Source: Eledone cirrhosa (taxonomy: Eukaryota). Taken from it: a stretch of 64,000 nucleotides of DNA. The translations under genes were made by a program, and so were the position numbers. Within the stretch, counting starts at the first letter, position 1, and each line of letters opens with the position of its first letter. The notes beneath the pieces are model-generated. The model saw only the letters and a list, made by a program, of their open reading frames with translations. It was not told where the DNA came from and made no database searches. This document shows positions 3,091 through 60,421 of this stretch, piece by piece. The stretch covers positions 46,686,001 through 46,750,000 of the forward strand of contig OZ024753.1 in NCBI GenBank assembly GCA_964016885.1, read 5' to 3'.

Positions 3091-3318
3091 TTATGTAATA
3101 AACAACACAATATAATTATTCCATTACCCAAGGTTTCGTGAAGTTAGACGATTCTAACAGAAACGTCTGGTTTCATTCATCAGAAGAAATATCTTTATTA
3201 CGATATCGTAATAAATATATTTCATCTGCCCAACAAAATCCGACGTTTCAGTTAGAATCGTCTAACTTCACGAAACCTTGGGTAATGGAATAATTATATT
3301 GTGTTGCTTATTATATAA
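3091..3318. repeat. 228-bp fold-back palindrome with hammerhead-like remnants
   Basis: Arms 3091-3204 and 3205-3318 are centred on CGAT|ATCG and nearly identical except an internal patch (~3168-3185 vs ~3224-3241). Contains the hairpin GTTAGA-ATCG-TCTAAC plus GAAACCTTGGGTA and GAAACGTC motifs. Confidence 0.9.
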
Positions 3319-4269
3319 ATAGCTCTGTATTATACGTAGAGCACTCTTCTTTCCTTTACCTTTTCTACGGAAATACTTAGCACACACACACACACACACA
3401 CATATATATATATAAAGGTACATGGCTTTGTGGTTAAAGAGTCATGATCATAAAGTTATGGTATGTTCTGTTCTTGAGCAAAATAGTTTATTTCACATTG
3501 CTCCTTCTGCCAGCAGTTATGACCAATAGATAGTATCAGTGATGGAAAGACCAATGGAAACATGAATTCCTCGGTCCAATCTCACCATCAGTACCTTTCC
3601 TCATTGTATCTCTGTGTTTGTCTTTTTTAATCTTGTACTATATATATATATATATATATATATATCATCATCATTTTACGTCCGCTTTTTCCTGCTTGCA
3701 AGGGTGGGACGGGGACTGATTCTGTATATATATATATATATATATATATATATATATATATATATATATATATATGTATATATATATATATATATATATA
3801 TATATATGTATATGTATATATATATATATATATATATACGTGTGTGTGTATGTGCGTTTGTGTGTGTTTCTTTATGCCGTGTAACACAAGGCAGAAATAA
3901 GCATAAGAGTTGCTATGATCAACTAAAACCATCTTAAAGATGTTGCTCCAGCATGGTTACAGTTCAACAGCTAAAAGCTAGTAAAGAGATGGAAGAATAC
4001 GAGAATACCTTTAATGCTCCACCACCCACCCTTTCTCTGTCAATCTACTTCTTTGTCTAACTCAGCCCATCACTTTCATAACATACTCCTCCTTCCCTCT
4101 CTCTCTCTCTCTCCTCTCTTGCTCTCTCCTCTCTTGCTCTCTCCTCTCTCTCCTCTCTCTCCTCTCTCTCCCCCCTCTCTCTATCTTCACTACTTTACAA
4201 AAATAGAAATAAAGACCCAACAATGTTTATAACTGTAAAGCTTTAACTGACTCAGAGGCTGGCCTAGGG

Positions 4270-7200
4270 TTGAGCAGCAGCAGCAGCACCATCATCAGCA
4301 GCAGCACCACCACCATCAGCAGCAGCACCACCAGCAGCAGCACCGCCACCACCACCACCACCACCATCAGCACCAGCACCACCATCAGCAGCAGCACCAC
4401 CACCACCACCAGCACCAGCACCACCATCAGCAGCAGCAGCACTATCAGCAGCAGTAGCACCATCATCATCAGCAGCAGCAGCACCACCACCATCAGCAGC
4501 AGCAGCAGCACTACCACCATCAGCAGTATATTGAATATAAAATACATACACACACATTTAATGGTTTCATCCATATATATATGTTTGTGTGTGCATGCAT
4601 GCATATGCACATATGTGTGTGTGTGTGCACCCCCACCCCCACACACACACAAGAATTTTCTTTATGTATTTGCTTTTGCTTCCTTTTATTATTTTCCCTC
4701 CTCCTCTCTTCTCTCCTCTTCCTCCTCCTCTCTTCTCTCCTCCTTCCAGTATCTCTCCATCTCCCCTTCCTCCTCCCCTTCAATCTCCACTAAAAGCACC
4801 ACTAATATAAAATAGTATTACATACACACACACATATATATATGTGTGTATGTGTATACATACACACACACACATATATATATATGTGTATGTGTATACA
4901 TACACACACATATATATATGTGTATCTGTATACATACACACACATATATATATGTGTATGTGTATACATACACACACATATATATATGTGTGTGTGTGTA
5001 TGTATATACATATGTATAAATATGAATATATGCATATATATATGTGTATATATACATATACACACGTATATATATATGTGTGTATATATACATATACACA
5101 CGTATATATATATGTGTGTATATATATATACATATACACACGTATATATATATGTGTGTATATATACATATACACACGTATATATATATGTGTGTATATA
5201 TACATATATACACGTATATATATATGTGTGTATATGTACATATATACACGTATATAGTGATTTATTTTATGATGGCCAAATCAACTCCCACCACTTACCA
5301 TCTCTTCTCTCCCTTTTCCTTTCACACTCCCTCATAAATCTCAACTCCTACCTCTCCTCAGGCCCTCACACTCTTCCATCACTCCCATTCTCTCATACCT
5401 CTTCTCTCTCTGCCCCTCCCACCCCTCCTATTTCTCTTTCTTTCACCATCTCTCCCTCTCTTTATATTTACTTCTTTTTTTAATTTTTTGCTGCATGTAA
5501 GGTCACACACACACACACACAGACACTCACTCACACATACATAAACACTTGTACATACACACACACTCCCCCTTCCTCTTCATCCTATCTCCCACTCTCT
5601 ATTTGTGTCAATGTGTGTGTTGTACTCATCACACACTCCATCTTTTATCACTCTTTCTCTCACTCTCGCTCTCTCTCACTCTCACTCCCGCTCTCTCTCA
5701 CTCTCACTCTCTCTCACTCTCGCTCACTTTCCCTACCACTCACTCTCGCTCCCACTCTCGCTCTCTCTCACTCTCACTCCCGCTCTCTCTCACTCTCACT
5801 CTCTCTCACTCTCGCTCACTTTCCCTACCACTCACTCTCGCTCCCACTCTCGCTCTCTCTCACTCTCACTCTCACTCTCGCTCTCTCTCACTCTCACTAT
5901 CTCTCACTCTCACTCTCGCTCACTTTCCCTACCACTCACTCTCGCTCCCACTCTCGCTCTCTCTCACTCTCACTCTCACTCTCTCTCACTCTCACTATCT
6001 CTCACTCTCACTCTCGCTCACTTTCCCTACCACTCACTCTCGCTCCCACTCTCGCTCTCTCTCACTCTCCCTACCACTCACTCTCGCTCCCACACTCGCT
6101 CTATCTCACTTTCCCTATCACTCACTCTCGCTCTCTCTCACTCCCACTCTCACTCCCACTCTCCCTCCCACTCTCCCCCCTCACCCCCCCCCCACCCCAC
6201 CTCCCACTCTTCCCCCCACTCTACAACCCCTCCACCACCTTCCTCACTCTTCTTTATCCATGCGAATCCATAGAAACATCCCAGGAAACTGTGTATGTAT
6301 GTATGTAAGTATTTCAGTGCTTATATGTATGTATGTATGGTTGGGCACACTGGCGATTACACAACCATGATTGTATATATATATATATATATATATATAT
6401 ATATACACATATACATGTATATACATATACATGTATATATATATATATATATATACATGTATATATATATATATATATGTGTATATACGTATGTATGTAT
6501 AATTGACTTCATGCATATATGTGAATACACACGTATGCATGTGTGTATACATGTGTGTATACATGTGTGTATACATGTGTGTATACATGTGTGTATAATT
6601 GCACATATGTTTGGATAGCTGGATGGATGGATACATCTGTGAGTGATGTGAGTCTGTGTGGGAGTGAGTGTATATCTATGTGTATATCTGTGTGTGTGTG
6701 TGTGTGGAGAGAGAGTGTATATATATATATATATATATATAAGTGTGTGTGTGTGTAGGCGAGAGAGTGTGTGTATGAATGTGTAGTGTATGTGTGTGCG
6801 TATTCAGCTACATATGCCCAGGTAACACTGACGTCACTGCAAATGTGCATATCATTAGCTGATGACACTGGCTACTACTACTGCTGCTACTACCACTACT
6901 ACTACTGCTGCTACTACTACTACTGCTGCTACTACCACTACTACTACTGCTGCTACTACCACTACTACTACTGCTGCTACTACCACTACTACTACTGCTA
7001 CCACTACTACTACTGCTGCTGCTACCACTACTACTACTACTGCTGCTACTACCACTACTACTACTGCTACCACTACTACTACTGCTACTGCTGCTACTAC
7101 CACTACTACTACTGCTACCACTACTACTACTGCTGCTACTACCACTACTACCACTGCTGCTACTGCTGCTACTACCACTACTACTGCTGCTGCTACTACC

Positions 7201-7920
7201 ACTACTATTACTGCTGCTACTACCACTACTACTACTGCTGCTACTACCACTACTATTACTGCTGCTGCTACTACCACTACTACTACTGCTGCTACTACCA
7301 CTACTACTACTGCTGCTACTACCACTACTACTACTGCTGCTACTACCACTACTACTACTGCTGCTGCTGCTTTTACTACTACTACTATTGCTACTGCTAC
7401 GACTTCTACTACTACCACCACCACAGTTACTACTACTACTGCTAGTACCACTACCACAACTGCTGCTGCTACTACTACTACTGCTGTTATAGCGAGAGAT
7501 ATCGTGGATGAGAGTGAAATACATGAAAGCCCCAGAAGGATTAAATACATCGACATTGGCATGATTTGAATTCACAACCTAAAATATACCTTACAGCATC
7601 GACTCTAGGGGAAGGGATGATTTAATTAAACCTTTTTAACCCAGGAGATAACTGGTATTTGTCTATCATTGACTCTGGCTGGATTTGATCTGGGTACATT
7701 GAGGAATGTGATTAGGCACAGGTGGCGATGGTGGTGGTGGTGGTGGTGGGGATAGGGGTGGGGGTGATGGTAGTGATGATGACGGTGGTGATGGTAATGG
7801 CAGTGATGGTGGTGATAGTAGTGGTGGTGGTGATGGTGGTGGTGGTGATGGTGATGATGGTGATGGTGACCATGGAGAGGATGATAGTAGTAGTAGTAAT
7901 GGTGGTGGTGGTGATGATGT
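4270..7920. repeat. Cluster of large compound microsatellites
   Basis: (CAG/CAC/CAT)n 4270-4525; (TA/CA/TG)n 4820-5255; (CT/CTCA/CTCG)n 5645-6160; (CTA/CTG/CCA)n 6870-7485; (GGT/GAT)n 7720-7920. Confidence 0.95.
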
Positions 7921-59619: not shown

Positions 59620-60200
59620 TCATGCTGCCAATATGTACATACTTGTATTAATAGCTATAAGGATTAGATCATTGGCATGAGACTTCCCACAGGCAGCCAA
59701 TTTTAAACTCCTCTGTTATGGCCTGAAGGACAATAATAAATTGGAGGGGGCTAAGGGCAGGGCCCTGGTGGACGCCCACCAGCACACTAAATTTATCCCT
59801 ATAATCATTGTATGTACCACCCTTACCAGCCATTTCTTTACCCCTAGTTTCCTAAGAGCCCACCAGATTATGAAGCAAGGAACTCTGCCAAAAGCTTTTT
59901 CCAGATCAACAACTGCTATGTAGAGAGACTTACTTCTCCTGCAGCTGTCTCACAAGAAAGAGGGCATATGTGGTACCTTTACCTGGCATAAAGCTAAACT
60001 GCACCTTGTCTATGTTAATTCTATCCCAAATTAGTTGTGTAATAACTCTTTCAGTAGCTTTCATAACCTGAAATCTTTCATATTGATGCTTCTGTAATTT
60101 TTTGTCTTCTGCGTCTCCATTGCCTTTGTTGCAGTTGATGAAGGTGCTATTCTGATTCTAAAGTCACTTATCACTAAATTATGTTGGCTTGTACACTCCT
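59620..60200 (-). mobile_element. RTE LINE reverse transcriptase core fragment
   Basis: Reverse strand: DLEKAFGRVP..IWWALRKLGVKKWLVRVV..VGVHQGPALSP..FIIVLQAITEEFK..ANDLILIA; frameshifted. Confidence 0.85.
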
Positions 60201-60276
60201 CACAAGGAAGAGACTTTGTGTTTATATATATTTAATGTATAATGTATGTATGTATGTTTATATGTATATATATATA

Positions 60277-60421
60277 TAGGAAAATGTTTAACCCCGACGG
60301 CAGAGCTCAAGCCGTTTCGACGGCTATTTCAACATTTTCCTATTACCCACTCTACAACCCTAAGTATTGAGTACTCTGGTGCGTTATGGTCCATCTGGTT
60401 CCTTACCACACCTCCTTCGTT
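60277..60421 (-). mobile_element. Second copy of the 32296 family, palindrome partly collapsed
   Basis: Tail nearly identical to 32296-32380 in reverse. One half-hammerhead arm sits between inverted TAGGAAAATGTT/AACATTTTCCTA. (TA)n on both sides. Confidence 0.8.

Follow-up and report, generated by a model that had tools for sequence, protein, structure and literature searches.

The stretch analysed here, called the window below, comprises 64,000 nucleotides (nt) of the genome of Eledone cirrhosa (contig OZ024753.1, positions 46,686,001 to 46,750,000, forward strand). It lies inside a gene of the CELF family, and its introns hold several short fold-back insertions in which two arms derived from a hammerhead ribozyme-bearing sequence stand head to head. 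To judge from their sequence, these elements are 5′-truncated stumps of Penelope-like elements (PLEs) of the Hydra clade and represent new families at most; the class is already known, since published work covers Hydra PLEs along with the (TA)n target, the hammerheads, the tails and the truncated copies in inverted orientation. Our proposal, which we consider probable, is that each hairpin in these head-to-head stumps was formed anew, by priming from both nicked target strands at two RNA sites.

A first-pass annotation, made from the letters of the window, had assigned the host gene to CELF, as is borne out here. An RRM_1 match (E 5e-10) supports a CELF gene, and its exons, on the + strand at window coordinates -109001, -41558, ~39200, ~40445, 66966, 82180 and 92178, span -109001 to 92178, so that all window elements are intronic. 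The fold-back families were named A to E in window order; their arms end either at the end of the pseudo-long terminal repeat (pLTR) or at the end of a tail that follows it. The insertions, a fragment of a reverse transcriptase (RT) reading frame and the two exons inside the window are:

3090..3200, - strand: A, untailed pLTR arm; hammerhead core CUGAUGA at 3183, stem I weakened
3209..3381, + strand: A, tailed arm, core destroyed; ~64-nt tail with a GCTC..GAGC hairpin
17659..18302, + strand: B, solo 5′-truncated 3′ end of ~640 nt without a fold-back, sense to CELF
21024..21134: decayed C variant; tailed - arm at 21024-21107, then a 17-nt inverted piece
24135..24269: decayed B head-to-head insertion; tail remnant 24135-24157, - arm 24182-24228, + arm 24243-24269
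28709..28903, + strand: decayed Hydra-type RT N-terminal fragment, 43% to the protein of family A2 (see below), E 1.5e-9
32297..32434, - strand: C, tailed arm; 78-nt tail 32297-32374, hammerhead 3′ half, 5′ end at -18 from GAAAC
32435..32491, + strand: C, untailed arm; 5′ end at -14, stops at the pLTR end in (TA)n
39200..39330, + strand: CELF-family exon, first part of RRM2, approximate boundaries
40444..40526, + strand: CELF-family exon, second part of RRM2, approximate boundaries
49663..49751, - strand: D, untailed arm; descriptor-complete hammerhead (CUGAAGA, GUU triplet)
49752..49913, + strand: D, tailed arm, GAAA mutated; 65-nt tail 49849-49913 with an ACTC..GAGT hairpin
49929..50104, - strand: E, tailed arm; 64-nt tail 49929-49992, hammerhead (CUGAAUGA core, stem I mismatch)
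50109..50220, + strand: E, untailed arm; descriptor-complete hammerhead (CUGAAGGA), sequestered by the fold-back
60278..60420: C variant whose geometry is that of twin priming; an inverted pLTR arm (60278-60330) meets an arm consisting almost wholly of tail (60331-60420)

Self-BLAST after simple-repeat masking returned four inverted repeats:

3091-3318: family A, 89% identity
32377-32488: family C, 89% identity
49665-49846: family D, 96% identity
49993-50220: family E, 96% identity

Five inverted repeats had been described at the outset, and they are real, these four (89-96%) being joined by a decayed fifth at 24182-24269. One-sided tails, an interior free of open reading frames (ORFs) and (TA)n flanks were likewise found for A, C, D and E; in B, TA sequence occurs only on the right, ~15 nt away. 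The element boundaries needed widening, with the tail of A running to ~3381, that of D to 49913, that of E from 49929, and a decayed tail of B at 24135-24157. The C variant at 60278-60420 is barely palindromic. A 70-nt short-read contig crosses the E junction mismatch-free at single-copy depth (two runs of one sample, which may be the source of the assembly), and the E fold-back is therefore not an assembly artefact. In the random sample of genome stretches described below, 45 of 53 scored 3′ ends abut TATATA or ATATAT, against a background of 10.5%. Different families stack in one (TA)n tract at L029, L082, L086, L091 and L132 and at window positions 49663-50220; each stacked insertion adds fresh (TA)n targets. 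Three other palindromes (42490-42746, 58511-58559 and 60484-60608) were set aside as lying outside the PLE system, with 0, 0 and 1 other matches among the fetched loci.

Copies elsewhere in the genome extend beyond the fold-back point into common upstream sequence. The E arm lies downstream of an endonuclease (EN) reading frame in 26 of 30 loci, mostly 200-500 nt away, and an inverted E arm lies upstream in 9 of the 30; these loci were chosen solely by similarity to the EN upstream of one E copy, and one of them is the query locus. In a second EN group, the D arm comes after the ORF in all 6 long-ORF loci, and one D unit (L161) has a direct and inverted pLTR layout. A C unit (L176) consists of two direct pLTR-tail copies around a broken ORF, and at L174 and L175 an inverted B arm is joined to an EN fragment. 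The link to Penelope-like pLTR hammerheads drawn in the first-pass annotation was thus right: the arms are the 3′ ends of ORF-bearing Hydra-clade PLEs, with B, C, D and E continuing to GIY-YIG ORFs. Family A is tied to an ORF solely via a sister family, A2, which is 73% identical to it; a direct link through L047 was dropped because the nearby EN belongs to a separate decayed insertion. A2 itself follows a young ORF, its best 150 EN copies being 95-100% identical. Several A2 frames near 719 amino acids are open (L188-L217 and further matches), making it a candidate active element. Terminal inverted repeats (TIRs) of a DNA transposon, raised initially as a possible refutation, do not describe these arms, given their variable inner ends, one-sided tail and continuation into RT/EN ORFs; nor do A-E show the fixed TIR pair, uniform length and missing RT link of miniature inverted-repeat or other TIR DNA transposons.

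A single ORF with a telomerase-like RT plus a GIY-YIG EN at the C-terminus is found in D, E, A2 and, broken, in C; for B the EN only was recovered. RT signatures are RMRWKA and DKTK in A2, RLRWR and DKTN in D and E, and DKTG in C, and R12, W13, D89, K90 and T91 are at least 90% conserved among 119 aligned proteins. The encoded proteins carry a YRDD motif, CxxC..E and N..CxH motifs, and a CxCX5C linker in D, E, A2 and B, whose last residue is variant in C. A conserved Cys between the GIY and YIG-equivalent motifs is absent from the 119-protein alignment, and hence there is no internal CCHH. Since RWK/RWR, DKT, CxCX5C, CxxC..E and N..CxH form the diagnostic motif set of the Hydra clade as defined in PMC8557442 (cited, like the other sources here, for the accessible portion of its text), the elements are assigned to this clade. 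A structure model of the A2 protein built from 119 sequences reached a predicted local distance difference test (pLDDT) score of 92 and has telomerase RT as its best match (E 4e-9), and its Atlas neighbours carry GIY-YIG and RVT_1; a single-sequence fold was unusable (pLDDT 33). Units measure ~2.6 kb in D and ~3.3 kb in C, the Hydra criterion being below ~3 kb, and B and A2 have long 3′ regions. The families had been thought largely unrelated, a description that does not survive: the tail structure is common to all, and the encoded proteins are related (34-54% identity to one another).

First-look candidates numbered at least 1501 for A, 1235 for B, 998 for C, 613 for D and 1508 for E, so every family is high-copy, contrary to the possibility that the arms were single-copy. 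In a random sample of 59 evenly spaced 10-kb stretches of the 3.0-Gb genome, 49 insertions of A-E and close relatives were found (~83 per Mb), which extrapolates to a genome total of roughly 250,000 insertions. Head-to-head pairs make up 18 of these 49, and 44 of the 49 align over <300 nt, a count inflated by the short reference for A. The window has 8 insertions vs ~5.3 expected (hand arithmetic, Poisson P ~0.17), a density near the random-sample expectation, and enrichment in the CELF gene was not seen. More hammerhead-bearing families occur in the random sample (L259, L312, L313, L317, L333, L281, L319 and L329), among them A3, which has the same tail hairpin. Tandem hammerhead arrays were also met, at L302:6100-7950 (G000:C9:15000001-15010000; units on both strands) and L306:400-3450 (G000:C11:15000001-15010000); their periods are 311 bp and ~482 bp, and they resemble non-LTR retrozymes.

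The geometry of the head-to-head pairs carries the argument on mechanism. Across all fetched loci, exactly one arm bears the tail in 134 of 138 pairs (both arms in 1, neither in 3). The 3′ ends fall at two fixed points separated by 64-78 nt. Prior to the last de-duplication, 119 of 138 untailed arms stopped within 5 nt of where the pLTR ends, and 124 of 138 tailed arms within 5 nt of where the tail ends. Both endpoints recur in DNA contigs, which have loose ends at 49848 and 49913. We further defined a strict set of 85 pairs, which excludes 49 of the 134 one-tail pairs and from which five C pairs scored at +36 were left out, as subfamily divergence can mimic truncation. In this set the tailed arm is shorter in 34 pairs, within 5 nt of its partner in 33 and longer in 18, and the junctions show an overlap of at least 1 nt (48), a blunt join (10) or extra nt (27). 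Tail-only arms stand beside long untailed arms at L050, L051, L056, L073, L029 and L018 and at window positions 60278-60420, and short tailed arms occur next to untailed arms of 0.4-1.6 kb.

The first-pass annotation had suggested that the hairpins perhaps arose by snap-back during reverse transcription. In its simple form this is disfavoured by the 34 strict pairs with a shorter tailed arm and by the tail-only arms; a tail on one arm, with either arm the longer, together with tail-only arms, argues against simple snap-back and for two-strand priming. A fuller version would keep the Hydra PLE origin, derive the hairpins from snap-back or self-priming of one cDNA (or on an antisense template), and have later deletions skew the arms. 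Self-priming has been proposed for Adineta Penelope (PMC3846280), and the sharing of subfamily markers between arms, the overlaps at 48 of 85 junctions and the near-symmetry of 33 of 85 pairs are all as such a process would leave them. However, copy-back would have to halt exactly at the pLTR end, and the tail-only arms and the short tailed arms beside long untailed ones mean that fold-back of a single cDNA needs a later deletion in addition. We regard this version as unlikely.

If the hairpins instead arise by two-strand priming, the GIY-YIG domain would nick both strands of a (TA)n target, and two cDNAs would be started on the same RNA, the first where the pLTR ends and the second where the tail ends; TA microhomology would serve each start, lying a few nt upstream of an RCTC..GAGY hairpin. 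The two cDNAs would halt early, often near the RNA 5′ end, and would then be end-joined with small overlaps or insertions. Subfamily markers match between arms in 32 of 32 cases in C (25 expected) and in 8/8 and 6/6 in B, and arms carrying the same markers fit one template RNA. A PLE protein assayed in vitro was found to cut both strands and to extend them, with two start sites that bound the tail (PMC11167929). The origin of inverted copies and one-sided tails in PLEs is treated as an open question in the accessible text of PMC8557442.

Junctions are nearly all unique among copies, and junctions that differ between copies indicate that no hairpin master replicates. A fold-back with identical arm ends does recur in 12 E loci (L230, L235-L244 and L246), 9 of them on C20 at ~100-430 kb from one another; junction and flanks are identical in the 3 that were printed, and these 12 fold-backs probably ride inside a larger repeated unit. 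The elements had originally been taken for a distinct class of non-autonomous hairpin retroelements. Self-propagating hairpin ribozyme mini-elements that regulate CELF pre-mRNA would agree with the abundance and stability of the hairpins and with the one junction common to 12 E loci, but those loci also match in their flanks and thus travel within a larger repeat, copies of every length occur between 100-nt stumps and full units, the hammerheads are sequestered (see below), and the density in CELF is near background. This reading, largely refuted by junction diversity, is highly improbable.

Each of the five tails opens with a hairpin of the form RCTC-inner stem-GAGY-RCY, set 4-7 nt beyond the end of the pLTR; in the A group it shows an A-U to G-C change. 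The pattern was found 54 times in 590 kb vs 6-14 times in five shuffles. A G(C/T)ACTC motif noted in the first pass is real and forms the 3′ strand of this hairpin; in E it is also the antisense of the hammerhead GAGTAC. A second hairpin copy 6-7 nt past the tail end is clear in C (L176); D and A2, for which one copy each could be inspected, have it in degenerate form or lack it. In C, 93 of 122 arm ends fall within -23..-10 and 11 reach further, and DNA depth, as summed contig depth partly confounded by upstream subfamily divergence, falls ~30-fold across -22. Position -22 is the A of TCATTT, which fits the Drosophila initiator TCAKTY. From the sequence, the pile-up of C arms near -22 is likely run-off at the RNA 5′ end. 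More tentatively, and with slightly less than an even chance in our view, the twice-present bulged RCTC..GAGY-RCY hairpin may place a dimeric RT at two starts near the RNA 5′ end, both nicked target strands being extended from there; most cDNAs would then resemble retroviral strong-stop DNA in running off where transcription starts. Hammerhead cleavage was rejected as the cause of the 5′ ends: of 276 arm ends, 7 are found 3 nt or less from the site, with no pile-up, in a sample biased toward arms covering the ribozyme.

The same pile-up could arise if the templates were mostly short pLTR-plus-tail RNAs, retrozyme-like and possibly circular, mobilised in trans by Hydra proteins, with hairpins arising at insertion. 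Such templates would suit the predominance of random-sample insertions under 300 nt, the clustering of C arm ends with the drop in depth past -22, and the tandem hammerhead arrays of other families at L302 and L306; retrozymes have moreover been reported as PLE derivatives (bioRxiv 10.64898/2026.07.22.740005). Yet no A-E tandem arrays were present among the fetched loci, lengths continue up to full ORFs, and run-off at the 5′ end of a full-length RNA accounts for the same pile-up. Direct tandem repeats with a hammerhead in each unit define non-LTR retrozymes; A-E are solo or head-to-head stumps. We consider short templates quite unlikely.

Several points weigh against two-strand priming by Hydra-clade PLEs. 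The in vitro support is by analogy, as it comes from a Poseidon element and not from Hydra. Concordance of the arms also fits snap-back and is weaker in D (5/7) and E (7/8 and 9/10); the loci behind most pairs were picked for similarity to an arm, a bias that affects 5′ ends; and later deletion at palindrome centres could give asymmetric arms. None of 18 independent E events in a tail-only search passes -59, which is compatible with a short pLTR-plus-tail template. As for the clade, the placement suggested by the sequences comes from motifs and layout; the PLE proteins drew no match in sequence searches of Pfam and PDB, and neither an RT for B nor an ORF for A itself was recovered.

The first pass had given each element a hammerhead or its 3′ half; an intact hammerhead in every element is not borne out, and a strict descriptor finds three in the window: the B solo copy at 18207, the + arm of E and the - arm of D. 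Among the other arms, GAAA has become AAAA in the D + arm and the core is destroyed in the A + arm; the B fold-back is without an intact core, and the C copy has the hammerhead 3′ half only. The descriptor, which allows a U-U closing pair and a one-nt core insertion, gave 48 matches in 854 kb vs 0 in one reversed and three shuffled controls; one demanding a paired 10.1-11.1 position and a 7-nt core misses these elements. The covariance check was less favourable. Rfam showed no hammerhead in the window among the matches listed (150 of 287) and none on 10 excised candidates at E<=10, in searches with no positive control for PLE hammerheads. Descriptor-complete hammerheads occur in B, D, E and relatives of A, and B subfamilies show compensatory stem I changes (GCTTC/GAAGC vs GATTC/GAATC). 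Full-length C has a non-canonical core, CUGAGAA (L005:1341 (-), L076, L083 and L176); a core variant, UUGAUAA, would restore the U3-A8 pair.

Long double-stranded RNA (dsRNA) stems, as first suggested, are predicted for A, C, D and E (-118 to -212 kcal/mol). Whichever strand of a head-to-head pair is transcribed, the antisense arm is made first, and the two arms pair along their whole length, so the hammerhead is expected to be sequestered and cleavage to be unlikely. Stem I pairing probability, computed for E only, is 0.88-0.99 in the arm alone vs 0.00 in the fold-back, and self-cleavage of CELF pre-mRNA by the fold-backs, part of the original proposal, is accordingly improbable. The only unsequestered candidate is the B solo copy, sense to CELF (17659..18302; hammerhead at 18201-18251, predicted cleavage after 18245), whose stem I is thinly populated in folding (0.00-0.08). 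The hammerheads are thus predicted to be pLTR passengers silenced by fold-back. PLE hammerheads have been described as weak and dimer- or protein-dependent, and as dispensable for insertion in vitro (PMC11167929, PMC4209133). No function in CELF is shown for the fold-backs.

Two repeats of other kinds lie in the window. A 192-bp direct repeat at 3414-3605 and 12757-12948 has 98% identity over copies 9.3 kb apart, and a minisatellite-like tandem array at 23152-23870 is broken by a repeat resembling a short interspersed element.

Should the tail hairpin indeed place a dimeric RT at two starts, with run-off at the transcription start, the stumps, roughly 250,000 in number, would preserve traces of the promoter, of both priming sites and of the end-joining by which PLEs integrate. 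The mechanistic footprints are of interest to PLE specialists: the one-tail rule, the tail-only arms, the fixed starts by the hairpin and the 5′-end pile-up lead to direct predictions for work with a Hydra system in vitro. The stumps also supply this genome with much perfect intronic dsRNA, which is probably under-annotated and could matter for RNA editing. In the openly accessible literature, supplements mostly aside, we found no report of twin priming in PLEs or of a conserved Hydra tail hairpin.

Twin priming is known from LINE-1, where primers from the two target strands act on one RNA and yield an inverted 5′ segment; there the segments are free of overlap and the second site varies. In the elements described here, by contrast, both starts keep a fixed position, and frequent overlap of the cDNAs produces palindromes. 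Among PLEs, the nearest experimental parallel is Poseidon PAc of Anolis (PMC11167929), which likewise has two internal RT starts bounding the tail, cuts and extends both strands at an AT-rich target, and does not need the hammerhead for insertion. It belongs to another clade, its starts lie in an AC-rich stem-loop inside the ORF, and head-to-head products are left unexplained in the accessible text. Truncated PLEs of Schistosoma form opposite-strand hammerhead pairs 100-700 bp apart, as already noted in PMC4209133, and Adineta Penelope has head-to-head pLTRs with a tail on one side (PMC3846280). Low ribozyme activity and a dimer-dependent stem III belong to this comparison too; the accessible parts of these papers mention no (TA)n targeting, and self-priming is proposed for the inversion (PMC3846280). 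Non-LTR retrozymes are also non-coding and PLE-derived and have a type I hammerhead, as predicted here, but are direct tandem repeats, whereas A-E are inverted, single-event stumps (bioRxiv 10.64898/2026.07.22.740005). For O. vulgaris, 31 Penelope-like families with recent activity are given in a repeat annotation, with hammerheads unmentioned in the accessible text (PMC13282606).

The closest relatives are those of the Hydra clade, for which the accessible portion of PMC8557442 lists (TA)n targets, hammerheads in the pLTR and, from Octopus bimaculoides, Hydra-1_Obim. None of the fetched loci showed the hammerhead motif of Hydra-1_oBim, and A-E therefore look like further families. Tails here are 64-78 nt vs 30-40 in that clade, B and A2 differ in their long microsatellite-rich 3′ regions, very short head-to-head stumps dominate, and the tail hairpin has no counterpart in the portion of PMC8557442 cited. 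Shared with the clade are an RT with a C-terminal GIY-YIG EN, the RWK/DKT/CxCX5C/CxxC/CxH motifs and the (TA)n target, a predicted type I pLTR hammerhead, often with a GUU triplet and a stem II U-U closing pair, and 5′ truncation, with the inverted 5′-truncated copy and one-sided tail that the same source calls typical of PLEs (PMC8557442).

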